A stretch of 64,000 nt of DNA from Lingula anatina. Lineage: Eukaryota; Animalia; Brachiopoda. Shown here one piece after another: positions 13,612 through 50,033 of this stretch; within the stretch, counting starts at the first letter, position 1; each line of letters opens with the position of its first letter. Below the pieces are notes generated by a model. It saw nothing but the letters and a program-made list of their open reading frames with translations. It was not told the DNA's origin and made no database searches. Where the stretch lies: the NCBI GenBank assembly GCA_051362555.1, contig CM120641.1:124001-188000 (forward strand). The letters run 5' to 3'. The translations under genes were made by a program, and so were the position numbers.

Positions 13612-13985
13612 AACACCCAGACGGATTCTGGTTTGGAACTCAAAACATGGATTGTCTCAAAGGAAAGAAGGGCAAACGCTCCGTATCTCGAAATACCTTA
13701 CTCTATGCGCATCGCCTGATTTACTATCGTGGACTAATCTTCGAGTGGGGAGTTCGTTGGGGAAACGGCGAGTTAGGGTATTCTATTTGCGCGTCCCCTT
13801 TCGGTCCACACTGTGAAGTCAGCTGGGAGGCTCGGCCAGCAGCGACGAGTACCTGTGGTATTGAAGCCGCCAAACAGTTTGCACGATCCTACAAATCGAG
13901 ATTTGGAAACTACAACCTGATTTTCAACAACTGCCACACGTTTGCCAACCGTCTAGCGGGCATGTTGCAAAACGGCGATTGTTAA
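13612..13985 (+). CDS. PPPDE-like family copy B: isolated intact terminal exon without its own exons 1-2
   Basis: Identical to 20209-20582; upstream homology breaks at 12961 inside intron 2; acceptor ttttag retained. Confidence 0.65.
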
Positions 13986-16251: not shown

Positions 16252-17140
16252 TCACTGTGGAGGCTGTGCATAGAGGCAGTCTTTTCCTTGGTATGTGATC
16301 AACGGTTCGTTTAACCATTCCGTAAATCCAGCATCTTTCACAAATTGCTTGACCTCCTGATCGTACTTCAGCTTGAAACCTTCCGGATCCCGTGCCAACA
16401 CGAACAGCGTGACCCGGAAGTTATCTGTGACCACTGCATACTCGTACTGACCACTGGTGGAAAACGTCTGGGGACCCAGCTTAACAATCCAATCTGTAAA
16501 AGAACATTACAGCGGGCTCAAAAAGTTACGCAATACGCAATACATTCCTGTCTTATACACTGACTAAGGAAAAATTTACTGACCTGCAGAGGAATTTAGC
16601 ATTCTATTATATTATCCCGTAATTTGTAGTTGCTATCAGATTACTATTTATATAACTGGGAAATATTGAATAAAAAAAAATAAATAATAAAGATTTATGC
16701 TGAAGGTATCCTGTAGGAAACTATGGGTTATGTATAACATGATAGAATAACATAGTGTATAATGTAGGCCCTATTCATCCTAAAAATTCTTATTTTTTCC
16801 CTTATCTTACTCTCTATCAAAGAAAAAAGGGAGGTGCCCCCCCCCCCCCCCCCCAACACATTCTCACTGCACAGAGCAGAAAAGTGTAAAGAAATAGCTA
16901 TAGAAATATCTGTAAATATCTAGAGAAAAATTGTTCCAAAACCCTGGTCGAGGGCAGGATTACCCGGTACTAAAGGATACTAACATGGAGCTTTCACAGG
17001 TACTCCGTCCAGTTTCACTGCCAGTTTCCCCGGCTCCTCCGTGGTGTAAGCAAATCCTCGGATGGTGTGAGCCTCTCCTGTCGGCGTCTTGGTTCTCTGG
17101 GCATTAAACACACTGACCGTGGTATTACTGACAGCGCCAT
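16252..17140 (-). CDS. Duplicated exons 3-4 of the minus-strand ApoD-like lipocalin (16985-17140, 16252-16493); alternative 3' end or orphan half-gene
   Basis: YGAVSNTTVSVFNAQRTKTPTGEAHTIRGFAYTTEEPGKLAVKLDGVPVKAP|YWIVKLGPQ..YEYAVVTDNFRVTLFVLARDPEGF..KDCLY; ORF and splice sites intact, near-identical to 22874-23761. Confidence 0.8.
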
Positions 17141-18675
17141 CTGGGGGTGAGAAGGTTTTGACAGTTTAACTGAACTCTGTTGTAAAGCAAATGGCTTATA
17201 CTTTTACTAATTGCAGATACTAATTAAAACGGAATCAAATGTGCAAAATCGTAGGGAGTTGTTGAGAGTAAATTAAGTTTCATCAAGAGTCAACAAGTGT
17301 ATACATGTTTTAGTGTCAGAAAAGATTGAAAAGGTCAAAGTCACTAACAGTGTATGCGATTGGTTAATTTCTTACACGTGTAAAACACATGCAAATTTAG
17401 GATGAGTAAGGTTCAAGCATAAGTAATTCAAATAATATTTTAGATATTTTAAATTGTAAACAAGTCTCTTAGAAATTACCTAATAAGGAAATGTTGAATG
17501 GAGGTTTGCGTCATGACAATGGAAAGTAAACAAGTAAATGCATGACCAGTACAGAGAAATAGATTATAAATACTTGTAAAATTGTATGAACAAAGGGTCG
17601 GTGAATAAACGTTAGAAAGCTCCAATTCGTCGTAAGTCTTCATTATAACATCTTCATACCTTTAGAATGTCAACTGGTTTGCATTTGTACATAAATCCCA
17701 AAGAGTTTTATCAAATACGAACTGACTGGCGCAAACTTTTTTTAATGTACTTGGCTGTTAACTTCCCAAATTTCAGTGACACTCTGAGACACCTGTTTTA
17801 ACATAAACACTCTTGGTCAAAAAGTTTTCCCCACCTCCAATCCTTTTTTTTTTTTCTTTTTTATCATGATCATATGATCACCTCGCATCAGTGCTTCTTA
17901 TTTCAGATACCATACAATGTTTCTTATTTCAGATATCATATTTATCATGACTCACGGTACAGAACATACAAAAATACCCGTGAAGATACCCCTAATTTAT
18001 ACCATTTTCCGAATTTAGAACATGCATCCCCTCAAATCTCGTCCAGAAAATTATTTTTGGAATATTCGTTAAATATATTTTCCAAGGCGCCATCTTTGAA
18101 GAGTTAACGAGGTCCGGTATCAATCATAACCTCACGTGGCGTGGGCATTTTCCATTTTTGCGTAATTAGACTCTCGACAAAACTTTACTTACATCTGGTG
18201 ACTTTATAGCTTTTATTTACTTTTGTTCATTCTGCTAATTTGACATTAAAAATCGTAAATCTTTCTTTACATTACTGTTTTTATTAAAAGCAAATTAGGA
18301 GGGTGCACATTAGTAATGAGATAAAATCTAGAAGCTGATATTAATTAGTCGTATGACACGTACGTACTCCCATACTTACGTATAAAAATTGAGGATGTTT
18401 TTCTTTAAATTTTGCAGTGTGCCAATGGAAAAGGGATGTGTTTTTCTTCAAATTTTGAAGTGTGTCAATGGAAACAGGATGTTTTTCTTCACATTTTGAA
18501 GTGTGTCAATGGAAACGGGATGTTTTTCTTCAAATTGTGAACTATGCCAATGGAACTTTGAAGTCATGGAAATGTTCCAAAGGGAAAAAGAAGAGGGACT
18601 CTCAGCTAAGCTATATAAAGTAAGACGACGAGCGTCCCAAGTAGTTATCAAGGCTAAACGATAGGACTACGAAAA

Positions 18676-20582
18676 ATGTGGAATACCATTCAGGTACCGT
18701 AAATCTTATACAAATAGCCTATGTCGTTTTACTCATTTTCATATGAATTATCTTGAAATTTCAAAAGATGCTCAGAGAATCACATCCCTAGTGATCACTT
18801 AGTTAGAACACAGAAAAAAACAGGTGTTCGGAACATTGTAACGTGTTCTGATCACGCAGGTCTAAATACCCATTCTCTTAGATTTTTTATTATTTCACGC
18901 ACTATTTCTTAGAAATGGAAAAAATCAATTAATTTGGATTCTTGGAGTTTTATATTAAGCTTAAATGAAATCTTTTTTGTAGGTCGTTGGTTTCCTACTC
19001 TGCGTGAACATCATGTGCAGCTTTGCACAGTGGATACCAACTGTACTATCAGAGCCAGTAAACGCCCAAGGTATGGTAAATAAAATAGTGTCGGTTTAAC
19101 AGGGATGGAAGTTCGCTAGGATTCGTAATCCGTTCCCCATTACTTTGTACAGGTGATATTCGTCCCATAAACTAACCCAAATACTCCAACTAACCCTAAC
19201 TTGTACTAGTCATACTGGAGCCCGGACTTCCATTCCTAGGACTTCCATATCCTGTTACACATATCCTATTATATGTAGCAGTCACTTTGTATTTCCTTGC
19301 CAACCAAGAAGTGCATGTAAACGGAGAGTGTCGCAATTTTGTCGATCAGTATAAAATGCAGACATAAATAATAATAATAAAGATAATAATAACGATGGTA
19401 TTTACTCAAAGTTTAAAATGTTAAATCGATTATACGCGTTATTTAAAGTACAAAATAAGAGGAAGGTTTAAATACATGAAAGAAGTTTTTTCGTGGTCTA
19501 CAGATACGATGATAAAATACAAATATCCTTACTAAAGAGATTGAACAATGTCCCGTTTCTGAGCACTGAATTCCGGCGCGAAATCACCATTCACGTGACC
19601 AAAGCCCATAGGTGGTGGACAGAAACGTCGTGTTTGACTGATGTTATTGAGTTCTTAGAATTTTTATCAAGATTAAAATTGTCATTGTGAAAAGTAGTTA
19701 AAAACGAGCCTTTTGGTTAGCAAGGAAGTGCACTATATACACTAGCTTTCACTTATTCTGCTTATTTGGGATGTTGCACAGACGGTAGAATTACGAAGTT
19801 TGATTTCCTTCGATACATACGTTACTGATATATTTTAATGATTATGATATGTTTATTACAACTTCTTGTGCGCCCACATCTAATTCTTACCGAAAATAGA
19901 TTGCAAATGAAGAGAAACGTAACAGAAAAAAGTAGTTATCTACAAACGTTCAGTAAAAAGTTGTTCTATCGTGCATACAATACGTTACCAATAATAACGT
20001 TACCAGTAGCTACGATGTCACAGAAGAAGGATCTCTGAAAAGTTACTTGCCTTCCCCCAAAATCAGCCTGCCACATTTTTGATCGCTGATTGCCCATTAC
20101 CAAACATAGTTTCATGCATGCATCGTGTGTTAATTTATTTTTGCTATCATTATTTCTAATTGGTAATATTACACACATACTAATCAATTACACGGCGATT
20201 ATTTTTAGAACACCCAGACGGATTCTGGTTTGGAACTCAAAACATGGATTGTCTCAAAGGAAAGAAGGGCAAACGCTCCGTATCTCGAAATACCTTACTC
20301 TATGCGCATCGCCTGATTTACTATCGTGGACTAATCTTCGAGTGGGGAGTTCGTTGGGGAAACGGCGAGTTAGGGTATTCTATTTGCGCGTCCCCTTTCG
20401 GTCCACACTGTGAAGTCAGCTGGGAGGCTCGGCCAGCAGCGACGAGTACCTGTGGTATTGAAGCCGCCAAACAGTTTGCACGATCCTACAAATCGAGATT
20501 TGGAAACTACAACCTGATTTTCAACAACTGCCACACGTTTGCCAACCGTCTAGCGGGCATGTTGCAAAACGGCGATTGTTAA
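18676..20582 (+). CDS. Secreted PPPDE-like protein copy C (complete, ~159 aa); exons 18676-18693, 18983-19070, 20209-20582
   Basis: TATATAAA at ~18612; MWNTIQ|VVGFLLCVNIMCSFAQWIPTVLSEPVNAQ|EHPDGFWFG..YAHRLIYY..YNLIFNNCHTFANRL. Confidence 0.8.
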
Positions 20583-22873
20583 CCTCGCTTCAGGGCTACA
20601 GCTGATGAAGATTGAATGGTGAAGTTGGCAAAATATGGCAAATATTGTATTATATTTAAGTTGTAACAGGAGAAACATTCACAATCATTTTAACAAACCC
20701 AAATTAATAAGTGCCTGATGTCGAGGAATAACAAAGCTGTATGTTTTTAAAATACACGAAGCCTATGAATCACTAACGTACCCATTTGAGAATAAGTAAT
20801 GTAGTATTTCTTTTTTGTGTTCATACTGCGAGAAAAAATAATTTGAACTTGAAAACGCGCATTTGCGAGATATGACCTAGTATAATTAAGACGACAAGTT
20901 TTCAGCGTGCAACCAGTTTTATGAATGACCGCCTTGTTTTATACTACCCCATTACAATTATTCAGATTCATTTATATTCTAAAGAGGTTTATGAATAAAA
21001 CTTTGCTGAACAACTAAAATTACCTGCTTTTGATTTTCGTTAATCATTTATATTCTAAAGAGGTTTATAAATAAAAACTTTGCCAAACAAACTCAAAATT
21101 TGCTCCTTTTGATTTTTGTTGATCACCATTTCGGCATACTTAAGCACTTTGGCATGACACATGAATGCTGGGGATAAAATCCTCCTTTGTCGACCACAAT
21201 CATTTTTTATCGAGCAATCATAAGATACTAGTATCTTTCAAAAGGTAGGGAGATAATTCGCAAGTCACAAGTTTTCAAAGCACCAGTGTAACTGTTTTAG
21301 TTATTTGTCATCTATTCTACTGGGTTTACATCTCATAATGAAGACATTGGACAGTTAAAGCTCTAAGTCTTTTTAGACTTGTGAAGATTCTTTTGTCTAT
21401 AGCTACTTATATATGCCTGATCTTACCATCCAATATTTCATCTGCTTGCAGTCAGACTTCATCAGGGAATGAGGTTGTAACAGGTGTGACAACCTATCAC
21501 CCCCTCTGGTGTGCTAATGAAACTGTTCTACACTATAGGTCTTTTTGTTTTTCGCTTAATCAACCCCAAATTTTTCATTTTTTGAATGTGGCCAGAATGT
21601 AAACATCAAGCATAACCAAATTTCTTAAAAAGGTAACTACACACATTAAAGAACGGTTTCATATTTTGGCAAAACATTCCACCCAAAATTCAACAGTTCA
21701 AAGGCCGCTCTTCTATAGATACATATCTTAGATAAGTTTTGCAAATATTTACAAAGAAACTGATACCGTGTCTCCTACTACTGCATGCGACACAAAAATA
21801 AAAATTATAACAAAGGTTGAAAGATCGACAAGAATCTATCAAAAGTAAGATTTTGGAAAAAGTACAGTGCAAAGCGTACCGAGAAAAGTATTACTTTATA
21901 TTTACCTAGACATCTCACTATTGGTATTTTGGACGGAAAACAAGTGTTTCATTTATTTCTCCCTTAATCCATTTTTGTGACGACAATTTGAAAAAAGTCA
22001 GCAGTCCAACGATACACACACAAATGCACAAGCGCACACAAAAATAGTGGCGATGCTGTATCCAGATATGTATGTTCTTAAAACTTATGGAGTCTTCTCG
22101 TGTTGAAAAAAAAATTATTTAAAATATCAATTGCCATAGTAAAGTTTTTTAAATACAAAGTTAAAAACAATTTATGGTATTGACTGAATTGATTAATACA
22201 TCCTATTAAATTTACATCAACAGCTAGTTAATTTGAATGAATTGGGGATATATTGGGTCTTAAGTAGCCAGAACGTTTTTTGTCACCGATAGTTATTCCC
22301 CTTCATCGTGTCCTTCATACAGTACTTCAGTTCTACTCCTGGCTCCTCAGCCTTCTCAGGTAGTGTGGAAATAGTACACTTTTCCCGGGCCAGATTAGAA
22401 TAGCAATGAGAAAAGAAACACAAAGAGTTTATTTAAATAAAACTGCGGATAACCTTGAACGTAGTACCAAATAGAACAATAAAAGCTTTAATTAAGCCGT
22501 GGGTGCTACGTGTCGTCAGTGCAAGTTAGACTTTGGTGAGATTTATTCTATGGAAACAAGTGGTATCAGAAATATAGGAAATTGTTTAAAATAGTTCCAT
22601 TTTAATAGAAAAGAAACTTTTTATTTACCTTAATTTATAGAACACTTTAATCACAGTTAGTTTCTTATGTATTCATTTTGTTATACTGAATATAAAAATG
22701 GACGCTTTAGAAACAGAAGAATACACAATAGAATTATACAATGCCTCTCCGTGCATCTTTCATTTCTTGGCTGTTATTAAATAACAGTCACTGAAAACAT
22801 TGTCCTTCCGTGAATTACTCTACCTCACAAAAGTCTTCATATACAACTGAATCAACAAAAGGAACAGAATATT

Positions 22874-25800
22874 TCACTGTGGAGGCTGTGCATAGAGGCA
22901 GTCTTTTCCTTGGTATGTGACCAACGGTTCATTTAACCATTCTGTAAATCCAGCATCTTTCACAAATTGCTTGACCTCCTGATCGTACTTCAGCTTGAAA
23001 CCTTCCGGATCCCGTGCCAACACGAACAGCGTGACCCGGAAGTTATCTGTGACCACTGCATACTCGTACTGACCACTGGTGGAAAACGTCTGGGGACCCA
23101 GTTTAACAATCCAATCTGTAAAATAACATTACAGCGGGCTCAAAAAGTAACGCAATACGCAATACATTCCTGTCTTATCCACTGACTAAGGAAAAATTTA
23201 CTGACCTGCAGAGGAATTTAGCATTCTATTATATTATCCCGTAATTTGTAGTTGCTATCAGATTACTATTTATATAACTGGGAAATATTGAATAAAAAAA
23301 ATAAATAATAAAGATTTATGCTGAAGGTATCCTGTAGGAAACTATGGGTAATGTATAACATGATAGAATAACATAGTGTATAATGTAGGCCCTATTCATC
23401 CTAAAAATTCTTATTACTCCCTTATCTTACTCTCTATCAAAGAAAAAAGGGAGGTGCCCCCCCCCCCCCCCCCCCAACACATTCTCACTGCACAGAGCAG
23501 AAAAGTGTAAAGAAATAGCTATAGAAATATCTGTAAATATCTAGAGAAAAATTGTTCCAAAAACCTGGTAGAGGGTAGAATTACCCGGTACTAAAGGATA
23601 CTAACATGGAGCTTTCACAGGTACTCCGTCCAGTTTCACTGCCAGTTTCCCCGGCTCCTCCGTGGTGTAAGCAAATCCTCGGATGGTGTGAGCCTCTCCT
23701 GTCGGCGCCTTGGTTCTCTGGGCATTAAACACACTGACAGTGGTATTACTGACAGCGCCATCTGGGGGTGAGAGGGTTTTGACAGTTTAACTGTTGTAAA
23801 GCAAATGACTTATACTTTTACTAATTGCAGATACTAATTAAAACGGAATCAAATGTGCAAAATCATAGGGAGTTGATGAGAGTAAATTAAGTTTCATCAA
23901 GAGTCCACAAGTGTAGAACATGTTTTTAGTGTCAGAAAAAAATGGAAAAGTTCAAAGTCGGTAACAGTGTATGTGATTGGTTAATTTCTCAATAGATTTA
24001 CAAGTTTCTTTAACGTATAAAACACATGCAAACTTAGGATGAGTAAGGTTCAAGCATGAGTAACTCAAATAATATTTTAGATATTTTAAATTGAAAACAA
24101 GTCTCTTAGAAATTACCTTATAAGGAAATGTTGAATGGAGGTTTGCAACATGACAATGGAAAGTAAACAAGTAAATGCATGACCAATACAGAGGAATATA
24201 GTTTAAATACTTGTAAAATTGTATGAACAGAGGGTCAGTGAATAAACGTTAGAAAGCTCCAATTTGTCGTTATTCTTCATTATAACATCTTCATACCTTA
24301 AGTATGTCACAGGTTTGCATTTGTTCATAAATCCCAAAGAGCTTTATCAGATACGAACTGACTGGCGCAAACTTTTTTAATATACTTGGCTGTTAACTTC
24401 CCAAATTTCAGTGACACTCTGAGACACCTGTTTTAACATAAACACTCTTGGTCAAAAAGGTTTCCCCACCTCCAATCCTTTTTTTTTTCTTTTTTATCAT
24501 GATCATATGATCACCTCGCATCAGTGCTTCTTATTTCAGATACCATACAGTGTTTCTTATTTCAGATATCATATTTATCATGACTCACGGTACAGAACAT
24601 ACAAAAATACCCGTGAAGATACCCCTACTTTATACCATTTTCCGAATTTAGAACATGCATCTCCTCAAATCTCGGAAATCTGATGTTCTACAGTGAATCT
24701 CACAGTCCATAAAATTTAAACAGTAGAACCAAAATGACACCAAATTTACACAGAATTAGCACGAGCATGTGCTCGTTAAAGGCCACATGTTTAATAGCAT
24801 CAGTGTCCACCGTACTGCCTTCAACTAGGGCAAGAATTCTGCTTTGTGGAAAATTACATCGTTCGTCCAGAAAAGCTTTTTGGAATTGCTCAAGATTGTA
24901 AGGGGGCTGAAGTTCCACTGCATTGCTACATGTAACTCCAATTCGGAAAGCAGCTGCTCAGTTAAGTTAGTATCAGGGCTCGAAGAAGGTTGATCCATCC
25001 TCGCATCCCTAGAACTTTGCGTTTCTGCAACAATTCACTCGCCAGACGAGAAATGTGAGCAAATGTGTTCTCGTGGTGAAGCCTGTAGTTACCCAGGAGT
25101 CACCTCTTGTAAATTGAGTGAGATTTATGTTTTAAATTTTACATTCATTATTTTTCCGGCATCTTTTGCGTGATCTAAAAATCTTCAATTCTGATTTTGA
25201 CGACCACGCAGGCACGCAACCTTTCCTTATTGTGCAGTCTCTTTAGTCAGTCTCAAATTACATATTCGGTAAATATATTTTCCAAGGCGTCAACTTTGAA
25301 AAGTTAACGAGGTCCAGTTTGCAGGCGTGACAACATAATGGGAAATTATCTTTGATCGTGAAATTAAAATATCAATCCTAACCTCACGTGGCGTGGGCAT
25401 TTTCCATTTTTACGTAATTAGACTTTCGACAAAACTTCACTTACATCTGGTGACTTTATAGCTTTTATTTACTTTTGTTCATTCTGCTTATTAGAAATTA
25501 AAAATCGTAAATCTTTTTTTTTTTTTACATTACTGTTCTTCTTTATAGCAAATTGGGAGGGTGCACATTAGTAATGAGATATAATCTAGAAGCTTATATT
25601 AATTAGTCCTATGACACGCACTTACGCCCATACTTACGTATATAAATTGAGGATGTTTTTCTTTAAATTTTGCAGTGTGCCAATGGAAAAGGGATGTATT
25701 TCTTCAAATTTTGAAGTGTGTCAATGGAAACAGGATGATTTTCTTCAAAATTTGAAGTGTGTCAATGAAAACGGGATGTTTTTCTTCAAATTGTGAACTA

Positions 25801-33574: not shown

Positions 33575-34286
33575 CTCAGAACTTTTTAAACTTATTTTTG
33601 TGACTTGTTGTGTTTTGTCTGTTATTTTGTGCAATAAATTTCATTTATTTAACATATGTATTGTTATTGTGTATACTGTCAGCAGGGCAACACACAGTAT
33701 GGAGTCTGCCTTGTTCTTACCACCCGCTCAAAGTGTAAAAAGTTAATCTTGTTTTAATTGAACCCTTGTCGTAATTGCGTATCTCACGATTAGCTTGTCC
33801 GGAATTGTAACATTTATTTGATCCCAATCTAAGAACAAAGCAAAATAATTTGTTACGCTGTTAGAGCCCTGGCCTTTGAGAACCTTAACTGTGAGGCTGA
33901 CCTAATTAGTTGCTGCTTTGGGGGAGCTCTTCAAAAATCAGAAAAAGGTAACTACAAATGTAGAATTCACACAAGGAATTTATTGCTAACAGTTTGACAA
34001 ACATCCCAGGGATCTACAGGAAAAAAAGTAGACTTTTTCTCATCAAATTAGACAGAAAATTTGACTCTCATTTCTTGGACAGAATATTCCTTTGTTTGAA
34101 ACTACTCACAATATGGCTGCCGCTATGGCCCTGTAACAGAAATAGGATACTTCCTCCACTCGGCTACATAAATCTCCAAAACAGTGTTGGAATCCTTACT
34201 TATTTCAACGAAGACTGCTACATCCTGCTGTACATCAAACTTCTGTGATAAACTTTTTGGAAGTTTTAGAAGAAAACTCACTAAAC

Positions 34287-36014
34287 ATGGCACTGTCCAG
34301 ACCAAAAAGGTCTGTAAAAACTGTGAAGAATCCTGACTTTCTATATGACTCTGAGCTATCACCACTAAAATCTCCCTCACAAAATAGTCAAGACACAGCA
34401 AAGGAAATGTTTCTAAACCCTGAGAAGCTGTACTTTGATCATCAAACAAGGTTCCAAGCAGGGATAGAAGAAAAGGTCATTTGCAATGCTAAATTTCACT
34501 CAAAAAGACTGCACGACTGGAAAACGACATCAAAAGAGTACTTTCAAAGGAAATATGAAAACATGGAACTCTCATCTCCACCAATTCTTCAGGAGACAGA
34601 TGGAGGTTTTCACCTGAAAATGACCACAAGAGATGATGATGGAGTTGACAGTACATATGCCGTCATGAGTTTCTATGTCAGCAGGGGCATAATTGTTATA
34701 AATGGAGCTCAATGTATGAACTGGGTCTCAAATGATTTTCCACGCCTGAGACTACTTATGGAAGAAGAGGCTAAACAAACCAGAAAAAAGAGCATGACAG
34801 CAGATGCAGATAACCCCTGTATTCCCACCTGTAGTATTCCTTTTGAAACACCGGTGAGAAGCGATGAAACTACGACCTCTGAGACTGAGCTTTCATTTCA
34901 TACCAAATCTGAAACTGACCAGCTTCTTCAAGACCTGGATGACTTTGATGACATTAAGTACAATGAAATAGAAAATGTCACCCTGGTTACAAACAGTCCC
35001 CATTTGGCAGTAAGGAAAATAAATGAAAATAGCCAGCAAAGGGAAGAAATAAAACGGTTGAATCTACTGCTTGCAAAACTACAAGAAGAAAGGGAGGCTG
35101 AAACATTAAAATTGCAAAAGGAAAATGAGACACTCCACAAACGAATCCATGAAATGCAGAGCAAACTGGATACAGTAACTGAAGAAAGGGACATCTTCCG
35201 CGCTAGAATTGAAAGCATGGAGACTGAAGTCGAGAATGAAACATGGAAAAAGAGTGAAATAGAAAACCTACAGACTGCTATAGATAACAGGGGAATGGTT
35301 CCCATACAGACCTCCAACAGATTTGCCCCCCTCCAACACCAGCAAATGACCTGGAGCTCAATTGCACGTGGAAACCGTCAGCAGCCACAGCAGCCACAAG
35401 CCCCTGAACAAGCCCCTGGACCAACCCCACCACAAGGAGCACCCAGCAATGTAAGGACACACTCAAAAATGTTAATTATAGGAGACTCAATGATGCGCAA
35501 TGTAAGCAACAAAATTCAGGCAGAAAATACTCAGATCCATGCCACAACATATCTCCACTCAGGTGCTACCTTAGAAAAAATTACAAACAGAGTATCTAAA
35601 TACAAAAAAACCAACGAAATACCGGATCATGTTGTCCTCCATGCAGGAACAAACAATATTGAATTGGACAATATTCAATACATGGTGAACCAAACTTCAA
35701 ACCTTATACAGGTAACAAAAGAAAAGTATCCTCAATCTCAAATTATTGTCTCTGGAATGTTCCAGAGGGATGACAAGCCCCACCTAAACGGAAAAATCTC
35801 TATCATCAACAACATTACCAAAAGCAAATGTGAGGAGGAAGGCATACTATTCATTAACAATACTACCTGGCCACGAACCCGGATTACAAACTATGGTGGC
35901 CTTCATTTATCTCGACATGGAGAAACACAATTTGTAAAGCATCTGATTACCTCACTGCGTACCCAAGGAAAACACCAAAATTTTCACACAGCTCAGCAGA
36001 GGAGAATTCCATAG
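34287..36014 (+). CDS. LINE ORF1: coiled coil plus SGNH/GDSL esterase-like domain
   Basis: Heptad-rich EEIKRLNLLLAKLQEE.., SNRFAPL, IIGDSMMR, VVLHAGTNNI, GLHLS. Confidence 0.88.
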   Translation: MALSRPKRSVKTVKNPDFLYDSELSPLKSPSQNSQDTAKEMFLNPEKLYFDHQTRFQAGIEEKVICNAKFHSKRLHDWKTTSKEYFQRKYENMELSSPPILQETDGGFHLKMTTRDDDGVDSTYAVMSFYVSRGIIVINGAQCMNWVSNDFPRLRLLMEEEAKQTRKKSMTADADNPCIPTCSIPFETPVRSDETTTSETELSFHTKSETDQLLQDLDDFDDIKYNEIENVTLVTNSPHLAVRKINENSQQREEIKRLNLLLAKLQEEREAETLKLQKENETLHKRIHEMQSKLDTVTEERDIFRARIESMETEVENETWKKSEIENLQTAIDNRGMVPIQTSNRFAPLQHQQMTWSSIARGNRQQPQQPQAPEQAPGPTPPQGAPSNVRTHSKMLIIGDSMMRNVSNKIQAENTQIHATTYLHSGATLEKITNRVSKYKKTNEIPDHVVLHAGTNNIELDNIQYMVNQTSNLIQVTKEKYPQSQIIVSGMFQRDDKPHLNGKISIINNITKSKCEEEGILFINNTTWPRTRITNYGGLHLSRHGETQFVKHLITSLRTQGKHQNFHTAQQRRIP

Positions 36015-36022
36015 CCCCATGT

Positions 36023-39013
36023 ATGTCTCATAAATCTCATGAAAAACAGTTATCTGGAGCGCCCAAGGATAGAGACTCTCACGAAGAAACAAACTCACCT
36101 TTCGAAGAAATAATCAAAATAAGGAAGAAACACTCCCAAAATTTTCTCATATGTCATATAAACATAAATAGCCTACAACACAAATTCTGGGACCTCAGAG
36201 ACATATTACAAAGAAATGTGATTGACTGTCTAATAGTCAGTGAAACAAAACTTGATTCATCCTTCCCAGACTCTCAGTTTAAAGTGGAAAACTATAACAT
36301 GTTCAGAAAGGACAGAAATGCAAATGGAGGTGGACTAATGGTTTATGTACGGTCATCCATTCCAACTCAAAGAGCAACAAATCTAGAATCGAACACCGTG
36401 GAACTTATACCTTTAACTGTAAACCTGAAAAATAGCAAATGGTGCTTCCTTGCCACTTATAGACCTCCAAACTCAAATGTTGACTTTTTTCTCCAAATTC
36501 TGGGAAAAACTATTGACATGGCTTTATGCAAATATGAAAACATTGAAGTTATTGGTGACCTAAACTGTAATTTAAACACTGAATGTGGAAATGGGAGATT
36601 GCTAAAAGAGTTTTGTGACGTATATGACTTACAAAATATCATCAAGGTACCCACTTGTTACAAGTCAGCAAATCCAACTTTGATAGATGTTATCCTCAGT
36701 AATCAGCCAAACAAACATCTAAAATCAGGAGCCTTCGACTGTGGCCTTAGTGATTTCCACCATATGATATATTCAGTTCTCCGGTCTCATGCACCGAAAG
36801 AGCAAGTACGAACTATTAAATATAGAAGCTATAAAAACTTTGATGCCAGTCATTTCCAAAGAGATCTTGAAAATGCTCCTTTTGAGCTGGGCGAAATCTT
36901 TGATGACGCTGAGGATGCTTTCAACACTTTCAACAACCTCTTTAGTGACATAGTAGATAAACACTTGCCAATGAAAACCAAAAGGATCAAAAGGAGAAAT
37001 GCTCCCTTTATGAACAGTGAATACAGAAAATGTGTCAGTAGAAAACAACAGCTAAGAAATAGGTTTTATAAAAGTAGAACATCACAAAATTGGGAGGACT
37101 TCAGACAAATGCGAAACAAATGTGCAAAACTCCGGAGGAACAGTATTAAAAACTATTTTATGGAGAGATGTACAGGAGGTGCAAAAAACCCAAATTTCTG
37201 GAAAACAATTAAACCGTTTGTGAGCAAAAAATCAAACTCTGGCTGCAATGACATTGTTCTCATAGAAAATGACACAGTAGTAAATTCACGGACAGAGATT
37301 GCCAGCATATTCAATAATCACTTTACTAATGTAGCCTCCCACATTGGGAGAAACAGCTCCTCGGATCCAGTGGAAATCAGCCATTATGAGAATCACTCCA
37401 GTATTCGCTACATAAAAGAAAATCAGGCTGAAGAAAAAGATTTTCATTTCATGCCCGTGTCGGAACAAAATGTCTACAATCGATTGACTAAAATTGATAC
37501 AAAGAAAAGCACAGGACACGACAACATTTCTCCAAAAATTGTGAAAATAGCAGCTGCCTCAATTGCGGGTCCCCTTACCAAATGTATCAATAGAGGCATG
37601 ACAGAAAACTGCTTCTTTTCTGACCTGAAAAAGGCCGATGTTACACCCATCCATAAGAAAAAGGACACTTCTGACAAGGAAAATTATAGGCCAGTAAGTG
37701 TGCTCCCAGTATTTTCAAAAATATATGAAGGGATTATGGCAGAACAACTGAACTCTTTTTTCTCAGACATTTTTTCTCCGTACCTTTCGGCATTCAGGCA
37801 TGGACATAGCTGCCAGACACTCTTGATCAAGATGGTAGAGGACTGGAAACAAAGTTTAGACAAAAACAAATATGTTGGCGCAGTTCTAATGGACCTATCG
37901 AAGGCATTTGACAGTATACCACACACTTTACTACTTGCCAAATTAGAGGCATATGGTCTCGACAAAAATGCCTTAGACTTAATGCACAGCTACTTGAGTA
38001 AAAGAAAACAGCGAGTGAAAGTCGGCGATACTCTAAGCTGTTGGGAAAATCTACATAAAGGTGTTCCTCAAGGTTCCATCATTGGTCCCCTGCTGTTCAA
38101 CATTTTCATAAATGACATCTTTCATTCTATTGAAAATTGTAACCTCTACAACTACGCAGATGATAACACCTTAAGTGCTGCACACCCAGACTTTGATACC
38201 TTAAAAAGGGAGCTCGAATATGATGCACAAAATGCTATAAACTGGTTCTCTTTAAACGAGATGGAAGCTAACCCTGAAAAATTCCAAGCTATTTTTATTG
38301 GCAAAACAGGAGTCAACCATAGTGATGAGCAATTATCTTTCAATGGAAAATTGGTGAAACCAGAACCTTGGGTCAAGCTCCTTGGGGTTTACTTTGACTC
38401 AAGACTGACTTTCAACAAACACATTTCAGAATTATGTTCAAAAACAGCATGTCAATTAAACACACTGAAAAGGCTTTCAGCTCATCTAGATGTCCCAAGT
38501 CGGCTTGCCATTTTCAGGCACTTTACATTATCAAACTTTAATTATTGTCCGTTAGTGTGGCACTTTTGTGGTGAGGGAAATATGAAAAAATTAGAAAAGA
38601 TACAGGAAAGGGGTCTAAGATTTGTCTACGACAACCACACAAGCAGTTACGACGAGCTTTTAAATATGTCAGGCCTCAGCACTCTGCACTTGAACAGGCT
38701 ACGTATGCTTGCACTTGAGGTTTACAAAGCAATACATGGACTTGCACCTTCCTACATCTCCGACCTTTTCCAAGAAAGAACAACAAGTTACAACCTTAGA
38801 GGAGAAAAGACTCTAAATATTCCCAGATTTAACACAGTGACATATGGCAAAAAATCCTTATCATATCTTGGGCCAAAAATATGGAATGATCTCTCAAATG
38901 ACTTAAAGCAAAGCATCAATTCAAATGAGTTTAAATCACTTTTAAGGCTTTGGGAAGGACCCAAATGCAGATGTAGCCTGTGTAACCTATATGCTTTTAG
39001 TGAAAATGTGTAA
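36023..39013 (+). CDS. LINE ORF2: AP endonuclease plus reverse transcriptase (996 aa)
   Basis: HININSL, SETKL, YRPP, GDLN, SDFH; RT motifs NYRPVS, DLSKAFD, GVPQGS.IGPLLF, YADD; C-terminal WEGPKCRCSLC. Confidence 0.97.
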   Translation: MSHKSHEKQLSGAPKDRDSHEETNSPFEEIIKIRKKHSQNFLICHININSLQHKFWDLRDILQRNVIDCLIVSETKLDSSFPDSQFKVENYNMFRKDRNANGGGLMVYVRSSIPTQRATNLESNTVELIPLTVNLKNSKWCFLATYRPPNSNVDFFLQILGKTIDMALCKYENIEVIGDLNCNLNTECGNGRLLKEFCDVYDLQNIIKVPTCYKSANPTLIDVILSNQPNKHLKSGAFDCGLSDFHHMIYSVLRSHAPKEQVRTIKYRSYKNFDASHFQRDLENAPFELGEIFDDAEDAFNTFNNLFSDIVDKHLPMKTKRIKRRNAPFMNSEYRKCVSRKQQLRNRFYKSRTSQNWEDFRQMRNKCAKLRRNSIKNYFMERCTGGAKNPNFWKTIKPFVSKKSNSGCNDIVLIENDTVVNSRTEIASIFNNHFTNVASHIGRNSSSDPVEISHYENHSSIRYIKENQAEEKDFHFMPVSEQNVYNRLTKIDTKKSTGHDNISPKIVKIAAASIAGPLTKCINRGMTENCFFSDLKKADVTPIHKKKDTSDKENYRPVSVLPVFSKIYEGIMAEQLNSFFSDIFSPYLSAFRHGHSCQTLLIKMVEDWKQSLDKNKYVGAVLMDLSKAFDSIPHTLLLAKLEAYGLDKNALDLMHSYLSKRKQRVKVGDTLSCWENLHKGVPQGSIIGPLLFNIFINDIFHSIENCNLYNYADDNTLSAAHPDFDTLKRELEYDAQNAINWFSLNEMEANPEKFQAIFIGKTGVNHSDEQLSFNGKLVKPEPWVKLLGVYFDSRLTFNKHISELCSKTACQLNTLKRLSAHLDVPSRLAIFRHFTLSNFNYCPLVWHFCGEGNMKKLEKIQERGLRFVYDNHTSSYDELLNMSGLSTLHLNRLRMLALEVYKAIHGLAPSYISDLFQERTTSYNLRGEKTLNIPRFNTVTYGKKSLSYLGPKIWNDLSNDLKQSINSNEFKSLLRLWEGPKCRCSLCNLYAFSENV

Positions 39014-41644: not shown

Positions 41645-43783
41645 CTAATTGATGTACTGTGCTAACCAGCGGAAACCCTCTCCGTACCCCTGTCTCTTTA
41701 GCACACTGCACATGAACAGTTCCATGGGACGCCCTGGTAACTCACTTCTTGCCACCTGACGCTGAAACAAGTACAGATCCCATTAAGTTCACAGTATAAA
41801 ACTGCCACGCAACTTCTGGCAAGTTCTCACAATAAGACTGCCAACCTGTACCATTTTTACTGATTATCTCAACTAGATTTTAAACAATGCTTGTTAAAGC
41901 CTTGTCATAAAAACATTTACAAATGATTTCTACTACTAGTTTCTTCTTGAATTGTTGCTTTCAGTTTTAAATATATCAACCTCCAATGCAAGGGACAAAT
42001 CAACAGTTATCAAAACATGATATAAAACAAGCAAAATGTTTACATTTCTATGGACTGACTTATCTACAATACCAAGAGCATACTAAAGAGTTGGGCATAC
42101 CTTTCCTGTAGTCATACCATGTAGTCCAAACCAGGCCCTAATATCATCCTCACTAGCAGCACCAGGGCGGTCTATTTTGTTGCCTAGAATTAACACTGGC
42201 GCATTGGCCACTTGTTCATCTGTCAACAGACTCTGGAACCAAAGTCATTGCTATCATTTTACCTCTGAGTCAGTCAAATTAAAGGTGCAGAGGTTTCAAT
42301 GTGAATTTTTTTCCAAACTGCACTTGAGTTTTATACACTCCTAAAACACATTTTTATTTATTGAAACTGATTGCAAAGAAAATTTGACATAAAATTTACT
42401 TACTTATTTACAATAAATGAAAAATTTAATTCCTTTTACCCACTTCTAATTCTGCTTTGGCTTCAGGAAATCTCTCTCTGTCAAAAGCATCTATCAAAAA
42501 CACTATTCCATCTACAGCTGGAAAGTATGTCTTCCAAACTCTTCTTGCTATAAGAGGAAAGTAAATATATATTTCACAACTATATGAGGAGATGAGAGTA
42601 AAACCACAGCAACTAGATCACCTTTAAAATGCATAAAGCATGTGTTACCCATACATATGTGCCATGTGTTATCCAAACATATGTGCCATGTGTAACCCAT
42701 ACATATATACCATGTGTTATCCATACATATATACCATGTGTTACCCATACATATGTGCCATGTGTTATCCATACATATGTGCCATATGTAACCCATACAT
42801 ATATACCATGTGTTATCCATACATATATACCATGTGTTATCCATACATATATACCATGTGTTACCCATACATATGTGCCATGTGTTATCCATACATGTGT
42901 GCCATGTGTTATCCATATACATATACCATGTGTTACCCATACATATATACCATGTGTAACCATTTCATTTAAAACCGCAGCAACTAGATCACCTTTAAAA
43001 TGCATAAAGCATGTGTTACCCATACATATGTGCCATGTGTTATCCAAACATATGTGCCATGTGTAACCCATACATATATACCATGTGTTATCCATACATA
43101 TATACCATGTGTTACCCATACATATGTGCCATGTGTTATCCATACATATATACCATGTGTTATCCATACATATATACCATGTGTTACCCATACATATGTG
43201 CCATGTGTTATCCATACATGTGTCATGTGTAACCCATACATATGTGCCATGTGTTATCCATACATATGTGCCATGTGTTTTCCATACATATATACCATGT
43301 GTTACCCATACATATGTGCCATGTGTTACCCATACATATGTGCCATGTGTTACCCATACATATGTGCCATGTGTTACCCATACATATGTGCCATGTGTAA
43401 CCCATACATATATACCATGTGTTATCCATACATATGTGCCATGTGTTATCCATACATATGTGCCATGTGTTATCCATATACATATACCATGCGTTACCCA
43501 TACATATATACCATGTGTAACCATTTCATTTACCATGTGTTACCCACACATATAGCATATGTTACAGAAAAGGCAAGTTGAAAGTACAAGTACCTTGTTT
43601 GTGTCCACCAAGGTCAAATGTTGTAAATTTCATTCCTCCCATAGACAGCTCCTCAGATGCTGCAATATAAATTTAGAAAGCATTTTAATTCATTGAAATG
43701 TATGTATCAATGTTAACTAATGACCTCTGCCCTTATTAAAATACATACTTAAATTACATAATCAATATTTTAGTTATGTATGA

Positions 43784-43831
<48 letters not shown>

Positions 43832-46368
43832 GAGGGAGAGAGAGAAAAACAGAGAGAGAGAGAGATTTTACATCAATATTATTTTATTTAGAGAGTAAAT
43901 ATGCATGTCAGTAAATATACAAAATCAAAACTTTGCAAGGCTAATAAGCAAATGTGCTTGTCTGCAGTTTGGTAACAATCTTTTAACTTCACTCCAAAAT
44001 CAAGCCAATCCACAACTGGCAACAAGCAAGCTTTACTACAGGACTTGGATATAATGTGGTGACAGGACTTACTTGGATATAATGTGGTGACAGGACTTAC
44101 TTGGATATAATGTGGTGTCTAGACTTGGATATAATGTGGTGTCAGAACTTACTTGGATATAATGTGGTGTCAGGACTTACTTGGACATAATGTGCTTACT
44201 TGGTTATAATGTGGTGTCTAGACTTGGATATAATGTGGTGACAGGACTTACTTGGATATAATGTGGTGTCAGGACTTACTTGGATATAATGTGGTATCTA
44301 GACTTACTTGGATATAATGTGGTGACAGGACTTACTTGGATATAATGTGGTGTCAGACTTACTTGGATATAATGTGGTGTCAGGACTTACTTGGATATAA
44401 TGTGGTGACAGGACTTACTTGGATATAATGTGGTGTCAGGACTTACTTGGATATAATGTGGTGTCAGGACTTACTTCCAAGGATATAATGTGGTATCTAG
44501 ACTTACTTGGATATAATGTGGTGACAGGACTTACTTGGATATAATGTGGTGTCAGACTTACTTGGATATAATGTGGTGACAGGACTTACTTGGATATAAT
44601 GTGGTGTCAGACTTACTTGGATATAATGTGGTGACAGGACTTACTTGGATATAATGTGGTGTCAGGACTTACTTGGATATAATGTGGTGTCAGGACTTAC
44701 TTGGATATAATGTGGTGTCAGGACTTACTTGGATATAATGTGGTGTCAGGACTTACTTGGATATAATGTGCTTACTTGGATATAATGTGGTATCTAGACT
44801 TACTTGGATATAATGTGGTGACAGGACTTACTTGGACATAATGTGGTGTCAGAACTTACTTGGATATAATGTGGTGTCAGGACTTACTTGGACATAATGT
44901 GCTTACTTGGATATAATGTGGTATCTAGACTTACTTGGATATAATGTGGTGTCAGACTTACTTGGATGTAATGTGGTGACAGGACTTACTTGGATATAAT
45001 GTGGTGTCAGGACTTACTTGGATATAATGTGGTGTCAGGACTTACTTGGATATAATGTGGTGTCAGGACTTACTTCCAAGGATATAATGTGGTGTCAGAA
45101 CTTACTTGGATATAATGTGGGTACATGCTGTGCAAGCCTGTCATCTTTCAACATGTGAAGCAGTGTGGTCTTGCCTGCATTGTCCAAGCCAAGGAACACT
45201 AGCTTTCCAGATTTCTTATACAAACCTGAAACAATAAAACAACACAAACTTGGTAGAGTAGCATGCAGGTTATGTGCAGTGTTAACAGGCAAGGCAGGGA
45301 TAACATCCACACTGCTGGGATAACATCCACACTGCTCTGCCATCAAACAGGAAATACTGCTGTGCAGATGTCTTTGAAAATCACCAATTTGTAACCAAAA
45401 CATTTTTTTTCAATATAATATAATATTAACATGTCATATGTCATTATTTTCAAAAATTCATCTTTTTTATCTTCTTTTTAAGGGAAGAGGGGCACGTTTG
45501 TTTTTAAACATCTGAACAGTACTGAATTTCATGTTGCATTCAGTATTTCTCCATACTGTTCTTCTACAACTATGCATACAACTATGCAATAATCTACATA
45601 TATATACACCTATGCACAGAAGCAAAAATGCCTCGCATATAATTTTCAATTTTGTTTCCCTTGAACACACCCACAGATATCTTTATATATAAAACTAACA
45701 CAGGTGAGGGGATGTTTTATCTGAATGCATGGTGTATGCAAGATGCAAAATGGAAATAATCTGCAAACCAGCAAGACAACCACACCCAGGACATGCCTCA
45801 TATAAGGTCACTGTAATCTCATGACATGCCACACAAGGTCACTGTGACCTCATGACGTACCACATACTTACTTGGGTGCAGAGTTGGCACTGGCTGGGAT
45901 AAATGACCAGCTTTAAGCATACTTAATAAGGTGGTTTTACCAGCATTGTCCAGACCCAAAAATATCAACTTGCCCGATTTCCTTCTCAAACCTATTGTAC
46001 CAATGTCTGTGTTAAAATCAGAGTAATTTCTGTGGCTGCTTACCAATCTTCTCTATATCAACAGAATGGCTGGACCACCCCATTCATTATTATTGATGAC
46101 ACTTGTCTAAATCTTTTCTTATTCTGTGAATGTTTCTTAATTAAAAGAAACAATGAAAAACTGAGATAAAAAATATGAGATAAACAAATGAGAGAGTTCA
46201 CAAAATCAAAACCAAACAGAAATAAATTACCAAAAGAGAAATGTCAGCAATATTTCATCCTATTCCATAATTTCAGATATATTTACTGACAAGTTTTTTA
46301 CAATAATATATAAGGTATCACTTACCTAAAAAGTTGAGCATACCGGTAAGCCAGTCCCATAAAAACAT
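41645..46368 (-). CDS. SAR1: SAR1 COPII small GTPase; exons 46326-46368, [45872-45991 or 45106-45225], 43594-43659, 42444-42547, 42101-42232, 41645-41761
   Basis: [74 protein letters not shown]; all junctions GT-AG and in phase. Confidence 0.97.
42640..43545. repeat. 22-bp minisatellite with a higher-order ~370-bp duplication in SAR1 intron
   Basis: Unit ccatacatat(at/gt)(a/g)ccatgtgtta(c/t); spacer cagcaactagatcacctttaaaatgcataaagc repeated at ~42607 and ~42978. Confidence 0.95.
44043..45120 (-). repeat. ~28-bp tandem repeat (~38 units) of SAR1 exon-2B end plus donor
   Basis: Minus-strand unit CCACATTATATCCAA|GTAAGTCCTG(T/A)CA is the last 15 nt of exon 2B plus the first intron bases. Confidence 0.93.
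45872..45991 (-). CDS. SAR1: SAR1 alternative (duplicated) P-loop/switch-I exon 2A
   Basis: 120 nt, same length and phase as 45106-45225; [40 protein letters not shown]; flanked by AG and GTAAGT. Confidence 0.85.
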
Positions 46369-46629
46369 TTTGGTGGATTTGTGTGAACTCAACTAGAATA
46401 TAATAACACATGTAGTGACACTCTCAGCAAAGAAAAAAGAACTTCCAAATGGTTCATATCATTGAAATAACTATGTTTTTAACATTTTTCTACAAGAGAT
46501 GTTAGGTTGTTAGGTTACTTACTGTAGGTTATAACTTATAATATAATAGTAGTGAAGGGGTAAAATTCTTAAATTAATAGGAATTTCCTGTTCAGAAACA
46601 TTTCATACAAAATATAAAACTGCTTTCAA

Positions 46630-48035
46630 AACTAGAGGATCAGAGAGGCGATACCGCCTCCGGATATTGTACCACCAGCTGGAGTAAGCGCATTCGGATG
46701 GGTAGTGATTTTCTAGACAATAGGCCTATTGGTTTTCCTTGAAATGTGTTATCAGTGTTGCATATATGCTGACAAAAGAGGAAACCTATGGGCAACACTG
46801 GGCATATCTCTGCTAGTTTTGAAGATATGAGGGGCAAGAAAATATTCAAAGTTCAGTTCATGGTGAACAGTAGGTCAAAGGTCAATTTCAAGGTCACAGT
46901 TTATGACTGCCTATTCAAGTTCAAAAGTAACTATGGGCATTTCTTTGCCAAGTTTGGAGATATATAGGCCAGAAAACATGCAAAGTACAGTTCATCATAA
47001 AAAGTAGGTCAAAGGCCAATTTCAGGATCACAGTTAGATAGCCAGTATATGACTTCCTATTGAAGTTCAATAGTAACTATCTTTGCCAGTTTAAGAGATA
47101 TAAGGGCTGGAAATTTTAGTCCATGGTGAAAAGTAGGTCAGAGGCCAATTTCAAGGTCACAGTTAAATTACAAGTATATGTCTTCCCATTCAAGTTCAAT
47201 AGTAACTATGGGCGTATCTCTGCTAAATTTGTAGTATTTCACATTTTATTTTCACCACTAAATATTGGATGTTGAACTTTTATATATAGTGCAATGCCTA
47301 AGCTGTATCGAAAACAAAACACAGACACCACCTCCAGTGTTGCGCTTGACAAGCTCTCCAAAATGCAAAAAACAAGAGGTCTCTATCATTAACAGTTCCA
47401 GAATTGGAGACAGTTTTCAGTGTCGGCATCTAATGGCCGCTACTCCCGTGAAAATGCACCAATTGACCTCAAACTCACGAAGATGAAAGAAGACCCTTAG
47501 GGTAACACCTGTCCATAATATTATAAGTTAGATCTGTAAAATTTCTGAAAATCGGCATAAAATATTAAATTTTTTGCAAAAAATTCCCATTTTTAGAAAA
47601 TTTTGGCCCGTTTGACCTTGAAATAAAGGTCAAAGGTCAAATCCAAGGCCATATTTGAAATCTCCACATATGACTTTCGGTCAGCCATCTATAGAAATTT
47701 TTCCCATAATTCCTACGGTATGGGAGATATTTAGCATTGAATTTCCAAAAATTTTGACAAGGGTGCCTTTCGACGAGTGTCATGCCAAGGGCAATGCACC
47801 GACTGAGACAAAAATACCCAGGGGTTCAAGTTGAGATTATACGTGACTTAAATCCAAGAGATGGGCACACAGGCCCATGCAGTCTAGGAGGAGAAGCGGT
47901 AACGGTGACTTGTATCCCACGACACCCTGCGGAGCCAACGGAGCTTACGGAGCCGGCGGAGCCGGCGGAGCCGTACGAGACGGGTCGGGACTAAAACCAT
48001 GAGTACCGCCAGCGTAGACGCTGGTGGTACTAACT
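46630..48035. mobile_element. One or two HINE/Helentron-like non-autonomous elements in the SAR1 5' intron
   Basis: ~135-bp tandem units (aagtaggtcaaagg.caatttcaaggtcacag), terminal hairpin gtaccgccagcgt-a-gacgctggtggtac (48003-48030); related fragment at ~60000-60190. Confidence 0.55.
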
Positions 48036-48269
48036 AGCTTACATGGGCAAAGCTGAAAAACATTTTCATTCATGAATGAGAAAGAATTTCAATTTGCGAC
48101 AAATTTCCTGTGTTTAAACGGAACATCAAAGTTTACAAAGACGAATGACTAAGTCCCACGAACAGAACTTTCATCACAAGTCATAAAAGGCTTAGCCAAC
48201 CACAGTTTTAAAGTGAATACCTAAATAAACACAATAATGAAATCTTATTTCTTCATTTAAATTTACGTA

Positions 48270-48528
48270 CTTAGAAAATTTCGATCGTCAAATAACGAAG
48301 GACTGTTTGACAATATTCCAGTGTGTCACTTACCCAAATGCAAAGTACACTACCACGAAGCAATATGGCTACGTCGCTTGCTATAACCGGAAGTAAAAAT
48401 TATTTGCGACATGGATTCTGATTGGATAAGATGTGACACATCTAGACCATTCTGCCAATTAAAATATATCTGTTATACGACAAAGGAAGTTTACAGTGCA
48501 CATGCGCACGGCTGCTGAAAGGAGGGCA
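48270..48528. promoter_or_regulatory. Probable bidirectional SAR1/MRPS24 promoter
   Basis: ETS motif ACCGGAAGT 48386-48394, CCAAT box (ctgattgg) ~48418, NRF1-like catgcgca ~48501; candidate minus-strand donor near 48270. Confidence 0.55.
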
Positions 48529-50033
48529 ATGTTGGTGAGAGGAAATTACGAGTAGCCTTTTAGTGTGGCTACGGGATGTTAGACATGCGAGGCTCATTAC
48601 TATTTGCTTGACACAATAAAATAATCATCCGTGCCAAAACGTATTAGTCATAATAACATAAATAATAATATATATGGGTAGGGCTGTTTAAAGTTGGCTA
48701 ATGAAGGCATTATAACATTATATGATTATAACATTTTAACAGGGCGATAATAACATGATATATGGAACTTATAAGCTGGCTAATAGGATGTTGGAGTCAA
48801 ATGCATAAATGTAGAGGTCTCCACTTTGTTTTATTCGTAATGCACCAAATTATTCAATTGTCCAGTGAAAGATGTTTTATTTTTTTCGTACATATTTTCC
48901 TTTTACGAATAGAATTAGAATTCATCAGTAGACAAACAGAATATATTTCTCCTGCAAACATTTATTAACATACCATTTCCAATCATTTTCAGACTAACTC
49001 AGTATTGTTAGCAGTGTTACAGCGTACTTGTAACACGTGCCCAGTGCGAGGGATTAAAACCAGTGCTGTGTATCTGAAGAACAGGAGGGCTGCAATCCCC
49101 AAGAGATCGGCAGCGGGGAACTATGGTATTCTGTATGAAAAGGCCACTGCCCCTCACCATCTGGGAGTTAGGAAAGGATGGCTAACATGGAATACTAGTA
49201 AGTTCATGCTGTGGTATTTATGAATCTTGGATTTTATTCTGAAATTGCAGCCGAAATGGAGGTGGAGCAGAACAGGAGCTGGAGCCATGCACAATTCTTG
49301 CAGGGTTCACACAGATTTGAAAAGTGGTTAAAAGGCTGTGTGTCTTTCTTTTAGTTTGTGACCTTGTTAAGAATTTTTATCAGACTTGAAAAAGGTTTAC
49401 ATTCTGTCATTTGGTCCTGGAGTCTAAGAGAATTATTCTTTTATCCCTAAGCACTTTGTTAAAAAATCACAAATCTTGTAGTTTAAACCTGAATGTAAAT
49501 AATTTGCAGAAGGAAAGAATACCCCTTTTTGGACATCATTGTATTTGATTCTTAACATGTTCTACAGTAGTTCATAAATAGTGTTCCTTGCAATTTTTAG
49601 AGTAAGGACAATATTAATGTCATTCCTGTTGATAGGACATCTGTAGTTTTTAATTCTTTGATATTATCACATGATTACATATCCTAATATTTTTTGTGTT
49701 AATTTGTGTTTATTATCTTTAAGTGAGTGTTTTGAATGGTCTTATAATCCAGGTAATCTTTATGGAGAATCCAGATCCTCAGAAACTGCATTGGAAGATG
49801 CTTACATCAGAAAGCTTTTAAGTGAATTGATGGGAGTAAATGACTACATAATAAAAAGGAAATACAATGTGATCACTGTATCAGCTGCAATTCCACCAAG
49901 GAAAGGATACAACCTCCTTTTTTTTCAAATTGGATTTGCTGAAGAATTCTTAACCACAGTCTTACAGTGTCCAGTGAAAGTGGATTTCATTGTTCGAGGA
50001 ACGGAGGACCTTCCAGTATTGCGATATATTTGA
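48529..50033 (+). CDS. MRPS24: Mitochondrial ribosomal protein S24 (uS3m); exons 48529-48534 (tentative), 48993-49197, 49753-50033
   Basis: IKTSAVYLKNRRAA..YEKATAPHHLGVRKGWLTWNTSNLYGE..EDAYIRK..IIKRKYN..FQIGFAEEFL..CPVK..YI parallels the MRPS24 family motifs. Confidence 0.88.

Follow-up and report, generated by a model that had tools for sequence, protein, structure and literature searches.

SAR1 is the switch protein that initiates export from the endoplasmic reticulum. Does the SAR1 gene in the window (the whole stretch of 64,000 nucleotides analysed here), in which the exon for the P-loop and switch I is present in two copies, encode a second working SAR1 GTPase, and how is one copy chosen over the other? 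Our overall reading, to which we assign a probability of about 0.6, is that exon 2 was duplicated in tandem and that a likely tissue-restricted, likely RBFOX-driven swap from exon 2B to exon 2A gives a second 193-residue SAR1, predicted to be active, with a retuned helix 1 and switch I. That 2A is a real, regulated substitution exon is the part of this reading in which we have high confidence.

Tandem copies of exon 2 in a SAR1 gene

The gene lies on the minus strand and has six coding exons, with exon 2 present twice. Its features are as follows.

48334..48370, minus strand: 5′ untranslated exon (main donor 48334, minor donor 48271; 5′ end approximate)
46326..46392, minus strand: first coding exon, with the ATG at 46368; codes for most of the amphipathic helix
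45872..45991, minus strand: exon 2A, the alternative copy; P-loop, helix 1 and switch I
45226..45871, minus strand: 2A-2B intron, 646 nt; GCATG at +43 and +76, TGCATG at -42
45106..45225, minus strand: exon 2B, the canonical copy and the one used most; pyrimidines at 14 of 20 acceptor positions, stronger than in 2A
44043..45120, minus strand: minisatellite, 28 bp, 39.6 copies; repeats the 2B end and donor
43594..43659, minus strand: exon 3; interswitch and DxxG-His; its start matches the loose-end consensus at 45106
42444..42547, minus strand: exon 4, predicted from reading frame and splice sites; switch II and helix 3
42101..42232, minus strand: exon 5, predicted from reading frame and splice sites; NKID motif and omega loop
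41645..41761, minus strand: exon 6, coding part up to the stop, predicted from reading frame and splice sites

The 5′ untranslated exon is defined by joints 46392-48334 and 46392-48271 in RNA reads, with read ends near 48365-48370. Opposite-strand reads begin just upstream of this 5′ end (48493-48600), hinting at a divergent promoter, and the intron of the 5′ untranslated region contains a highly expressed interspersed repeat (46620-48100).

The first-pass annotation had described two same-phase exons of 120 nt, and both were found in place, with peptides identical to its own letter for letter. Each copy is preceded by AG and followed by GTAAGT, and each matches the Pfam Arf family (E 3e-11 for 2A and 4e-12 for 2B). 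Either copy between exons 1 and 3 gives an open SAR1 frame of 193 residues, and the frame is also kept when both are placed in one transcript. In isoform A, the amphipathic helix, DxxG-His, NKxD and the omega loop all come from exons common to both isoforms, and 2A itself supplies the GxDxxGK(S/T) P-loop and the switch-I Thr of a SAR1 GTPase. No third copy of exon 2 was found in the 64-kb window; a weak match at 48171-48094 (E 0.023), which contains a stop, was taken as chance. The minisatellite holds 35 copies of the 9-mer that spans the exon end and donor of 2B, and its location there is probably incidental.

The two exons are identical at 73 of 120 nucleotides and 29 of 39 residues, and 19 of the 29 codons for identical residues differ synonymously. 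The synonymous sites are saturated (pS 0.99, against pN 0.22), the differences fall 14/7/26 over the three codon positions, and residues 25-37, which form the P-loop, are unchanged. These values bear out the earlier proposal that diverged synonymous sites around an invariant P-loop reflect purifying selection. Apart from AT-rich noise, no similarity was detected between the introns flanking 2A and those flanking 2B, which argues that the duplication is old. Ten residues are changed in 2A: Y17R, K18R, V24I, H38S, D42A, D43G, R44H, A46S, H48P and Y53H. Five of them lie inside switch I and two just ahead of it, taking switch I as residues 48-59 of hamster SAR1, whose numbering equals that of the window plus five (PMC2150902). 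The change H48P is not peculiar to 2A; Pro48 is common in both 2A-type and canonical-type segments and occurs in 23 of 47 distinct segments of the latter type.

2A-type exons in other animals

A protein search with 2A alone placed 2A-type exons of Patella, Sinanodonta, Liolophura and Pomacea at the top of the best 120 of 2363 matches, together with tandem forms from arachnids, insects and Penaeus. In total, 2A-type exons are represented among gastropods, arachnids, decapods and insects, and in one bivalve and one chiton. The closest relative of the window 2A is Patella isoform X2 (92% over 40 columns), an annotated isoform in which 2A replaces 2B, and the closest relative of 2B is from Pomacea (98%); these two likenesses point to a gastropod as the probable host. 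Four RefSeq isoform pairs, from models that are automatic, differ solely at exon 2: Liolophura X1/X2, Pomacea X3/X2, Stegodyphus X3/X2 and Argiope X3/X2. A profile built from ten pancrustacean 2A stretches retrieved seven further substitution isoforms from insects (five beetles and two sawflies). Annelid, echinoderm and chordate proteins with a clear 2A partner were not seen among the best 120 matches, which is weak evidence of their absence. Against solved SAR1 chains, the Patella 2A isoform scores E 4e-91; its single-sequence fold was uninformative (pLDDT 45).

Both copies stand in tandem in three of 80 metagenome loci, namely L001, of mollusc type, and L006 and L008, which are of insect type and nearly identical to one another. 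Between the window and L001, the orthologous 2A pair has pS 0.78 and pN 0.17, and the orthologous 2B pair has pS 0.66 and pN 0.06. Both exon copies are under purifying selection and conserved between species.

Several records carry 2A-like sequence in other settings. An intron-free frame of 191 residues (P0175) joins a mollusc-type 2A to exon 3, with a more divergent remainder, and represents either a spliced 2A transcript or a paralogue in which 2A is fixed. Frog SAR1B proteins and some fungal-like SAR1 exons (P0100, P0116, P0120, P0167-P0170; L015-L017) have lost His38 and carry Gly43, changes that apparently arose by convergence.

The origin of the duplication was examined with a tree of only 40 columns, in which two fungal-like rows nested within the mollusc 2A exons and were omitted from the topology tests. 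The mollusc-type, chelicerate and pancrustacean 2A exons each occupy one side of a branch in this 40-column tree, and the window 2A clusters with the other mollusc-type 2A rows (95/91), apart from its own 2B. A recent duplication within the species was rejected (AU p 0.021). On the same 40 columns, neither a union of all 2A exons (AU p 0.478, recovered in 7% of bootstrap trees) nor a duplication confined to molluscs (AU p 0.081) was rejected. A single origin of all 2A exons is tentatively favoured by their common position upstream of the canonical exon and their common intron motif.

Predicted properties of isoform A

Among 18 distinct mollusc-type 2A segments, S/G38, E/A42, G/N43 and H44 hold throughout and V39 is present in 17, counts that are partly circular since the set was selected by likeness. 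In comparison, of the 47 canonical-type segments, for which H38 is the defining residue, 44 carry D42, 40 carry D43 and 44 carry R44. The P-loop, Thr51 and Leu52 are invariant, and the P-loop and Thr51 are found in 18/18 mollusc-type segments. With the P-loop, Thr51 and the Sec12-contacting elements held in common, Sec12 should still be able to load isoform A. The mollusc signature (H38S, D42E/A, D43G, R44H and usually M39V) would alter the shape and charge of switch I, and this in turn would most likely change nucleotide handling or the hydrolysis stimulated by Sec23/31, and with it the lifetime of the coat.

Switch I contacts Sec23. A difference in GEF (Sec12) kinetics had been suggested in the first-pass annotation; this idea is weakened, as all Sec12-contacting elements are common to 2A and 2B, and a direct effect of the swap on Sec12 is unlikely. 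The effect would more likely fall on switch-I conformation, nucleotide handling and GAP-stimulated turnover. On balance, the substitution pattern suggests an active but retuned GTPase. The frog SAR1B proteins, with their similar changes, indicate that a 2A-type switch I is compatible with an ordinary-looking SAR1. An altered membrane insertion through Y17R was also considered, since the corresponding hamster residue, Tyr22, inserts into the membrane in simulations (PMC9974494), and was rejected as a conserved function; Tyr is kept in 10 of the 18 mollusc-type 2A segments.

The pancrustacean exons have taken a different course. Of their 12 rows, 11 no longer have the P-loop Asp and nine have a broken GK(S/T), and five beetle RefSeq 2A isoforms lack the switch-I PTLHP. 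In the insect 2A isoforms (P0159-P0164, P0166 and L006 1260-1374), the P-loop is decayed and the switch-I Thr mostly gone, which makes them candidate splice-made pseudo-GTPases. This decay, located exactly at the nucleotide motifs, raises a rival reading in which isoform A acts as a brake: a SAR1 that cycles poorly or is dominant negative would reduce or divert ER export in the tissues where it is spliced in. Mutants at comparable sites behave in this manner, with T39N being dominant negative via Sec12 and D34G blocking GTP loading (PMC2150902). For the insects, such a form would amount to a counterpart, made in nature by splicing, of the dominant-negative mutants known from the laboratory; the reading may apply less so to the window SAR1. 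Its P-loop and Thr51, invariant here and in all mollusc-type segments, argue that nucleotide binding is selected, and the insect exons are only putative homologues of mollusc 2A. We regard a brake as an unlikely account of isoform A.

It is rather improbable that the two isoforms are interchangeable and that expression of both copies is all that keeps the pair in being. The two isoforms do have every known catalytic and Sec12-contact residue in common, and in mammals Sar1a and Sar1b have been reported to overlap in vivo (PMC11087783). However, the 2A signature has been kept in gastropods, a bivalve and a chiton while 2B remains canonical, and a conserved regulatory element would be unexpected for interchangeable exons.

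Splicing of exon 2 and related systems

Exon use was read from four raw-read runs of the same species label (four of nine runs, from three studies, about 6-25% of each), with reads aligned to 45100-48600, a stretch that leaves exon 3 outside. The exon 1-2B joint is present in all four runs (152, 28, 60 and 163 reads in runs X1, X4, X7 and X2). The exon 1-2A joint (46326->45991), which the first-pass annotation had singled out as a check, was seen in run X4 with 13 reads at 10 distinct starts, amounting to 13 of 41 junction reads there against 0/152, 0/60 and 0/163 in X1, X7 and X2. Depth in X4, computed from depth bins, is about 18-20x over 2A and about 43x over 2B; only trace depth (0.5-1.5x) was found at 2A in X7 and X2. 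Intronic depth adjoining 2A in X4 is 1.6x and 0.6x, so that part of the 2A signal may be unspliced RNA. Exon 2A is included at about 30% in one of four runs, and 2B in every run. The earlier proposal had been staked on the inclusion of 2A in transcripts and its conservation, and the exon is found both in RNA and in relatives.

On the downstream side, loose ends assign 247 reads in X1 and 236 in X2 to the joint between 2B and exon 3. Despite the minisatellite, the first 2B donor joined to exon 3 explains 247 of 251 (X1) and 236 of 240 (X2) reads overrunning the stretch ends. The joint from 2A to exon 3 (45872->43659) was not among the listed loose ends of reads on 45100-48600, and the 2A-2B joint was not among the best 15 of 22 joints, one of which has only six reads.

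That the two exons are spliced in a mutually exclusive manner, as first proposed, holds as far as alternative use is concerned, on the evidence of the 46326->45991 joint and the substitution isoforms of relatives. Its strictness is less secure, given the double-inclusion RefSeq models of 232-233 residues in relatives (Pomacea X1 and, among spiders and a scorpion, Argiope X1, Stegodyphus X1, Centruroides X3, Parasteatoda and Nephila), and we consider strict exclusion likely. These annotated models, together with the intact frame on double inclusion, would suit 2A being mainly a cassette alongside 2B; the product would then be a SAR1 of 233 residues in which a spacer of 40 residues separates the membrane helix from an ordinary G domain. 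Such a cassette is quite improbable, because the 2A-2B joint is missing from those best 15 joints although exon 1-2A has its 13 reads, a mere spacer would have no reason to conserve the P-loop as 2A does, and a gap of 56 nt between the copies in L006 is nearly too short for splicing. A dead or recent duplicate caught by splicing noise, for which the three runs without a 2A junction and the weak acceptor might speak, is already contradicted by the X4 junction reads, the saturated synonymous sites, the intact frame and the rejection of a recent duplication, and is very improbable.

Several mechanisms could account for the regulated substitution of 2A for 2B. In the window, steric exclusion is ruled out by the 646-nt intron and frameshift surveillance by the length of both exons, which are multiples of three. 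RNA pairing was not supported: the best intron duplexes are near shuffle levels (only in two of six comparisons was the duplex better than every one of 15 crude shuffles, with margins of 0.2 and 0.9 kcal/mol), and no element recurs in L001. In pancrustaceans, steric exclusion is possible; the copies are separated by 56 nt in L006 (1375-1430) and, as judged from read-through protein frames, by roughly 39 nt in Penaeus and roughly 45 nt in a beetle-like record (P0152, P0008).

The 2A-2B intron of the window contains three (T)GCATG sites against 0.56 expected from the window rate (P 0.019, for a motif picked after the window had been viewed), and the TGCATG at -42 adjoins a branch-point-like stretch upstream of 2B. 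The corresponding intron of L001 has TGCATG at +51, +129 and -34, and the 56-nt intron of L006 has it about 30 nt upstream of 2B. TGCATG accordingly lies 30-42 nt upstream of 2B in the window and in 3/3 two-exon loci; the near identity of L006 and L008 reduces these to two independent tests of the motif beyond the window. The 80 loci contain 21 exon-bounded matches; in these, TGCATG occurs within 62 nt upstream of 3/3 canonical exons with a 2A partner, 0/1 2A exon and 0/17 canonical exons without a partner, most of the last being of non-animal appearance. A decapod read-through frame, judged from protein letters only, gave no sign of the motif. The 2A acceptor is poor in pyrimidines, with nine of 20 against 14 for 2B in the window and 11 against 14 in L001.

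RBFOX represses exons from upstream sites and enhances them from downstream sites; it acts in this manner on FGFR2 IIIb/IIIc and on egl-15, and the tissues concerned are chiefly muscle, heart and brain (PMC2777236). The arrangement of motifs in the window fits the FGFR2/egl-15 type, with (U)GCAUG upstream of the candidate repressed exon and downstream of the candidate activated exon, and points to RBFOX as the probable control of the 2A/2B choice. We propose that 2A is skipped by default owing to its weak acceptor. Where RBFOX is present, which in other animals means muscle or nerve, it would bind GCAUG just 3′ of 2A and activate this exon, and on UGCAUG beside the 2B branch region it would repress 2B. 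Such a switch would ensure the use of one exon or the other without frameshift surveillance or steric exclusion.

In FGFR2 IIIb/IIIc and egl-15 5A/5B, as proposed for SAR1, the exon that is repressed has (U)GCAUG close by in its upstream intron, near the branch region, and the order in FGFR2, an activated upstream exon and a repressed downstream one, is that proposed here. SAR1 differs from both in that RBFOX control is deduced from motifs and in that the target is a trafficking GTPase.

Exon swaps in GTPases are known from human RAB6A, RAB37, RAB28, CDC42, KRAS and GNAO1 (PMC9741552, table S2) and from fly G-alpha-o and G-alpha-q (PMC9741552, list S4; PMC5896119). In these genes, as in SAR1, a single GTPase gene carries two homologous, long-conserved exons that are used alternately. 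Tissue bias is a further point of likeness, tissue restriction being likely in the case of SAR1. In SAR1, by contrast, the unit exchanged comprises the whole P-loop and switch I, and the GTPase is an essential coat component that is usually encoded by a single copy. Sar1 is absent from human list S2 of PMC9741552, which is restricted to proteomically supported events, and from the 154-gene fly list. No paper on a duplicated SAR1 exon was found in searches of the open full-text literature, and passages of PMC8016994, PMC5572378, PMC6681134, PMC3338420, PMC4165533 and the PMC8797185 supplement contain nothing on SAR1 exon 2 or switch-I contacts. The SAR1 exon swap is a new and deep case of a known phenomenon, whose isoforms already exist as unremarked RefSeq models.

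Within the COPII pathway, the vertebrate paralogues SAR1A and SAR1B resemble 2A and 2B in that small sequence changes distinguish two SAR1 proteins; the vertebrate pair differs in exchange rate and in Sec23/Sec31 binding (PMC7307210). Their differences arose by gene duplication and lie at residues 106-117 and 139-146 (PMC7307210), whereas here they arise by splicing and lie in helix 1 and switch I. Alternative splicing of Sec16 and SEC31A is also reported to tune ER export by tissue or state (PMC4980449, PMC12265942); those events involve scaffold or outer-coat exons, whereas that of SAR1 involves the nucleotide site of the GTPase.

Most invertebrates are treated as having a single SAR1 protein. 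The isoforms would form a natural SAR1 pair that differs only in helix 1 and switch I, a region unresolved in the GDP-bound and Sec12-bound structures, so that the role of this region would become directly testable. Tentatively, the duplication may date to the base of the protostomes and have supplied an RBFOX-switched second module for muscle or nerve, which would have remained a retuned GTPase in molluscs and arachnids and decayed in insects into a pseudo-GTPase that is spliced in as a tissue-specific brake on COPII export. The mollusc and arthropod lineages are some 500 million years old; if the swap holds true across both, the first step of secretion would have been tissue-tunable for that long.

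Elsewhere in the window, a LINE-like element on the plus strand (34146-39013) contains two long overlapping frames, ORF1 for a GDSL esterase-like protein of 622 residues and ORF2 for an endonuclease-reverse transcriptase of 1051 residues. A direct duplication of 5.1 kb (12959-18041 and 19556-24674; 96.6% identity) is surrounded by further repeated blocks between 7800 and 29800.
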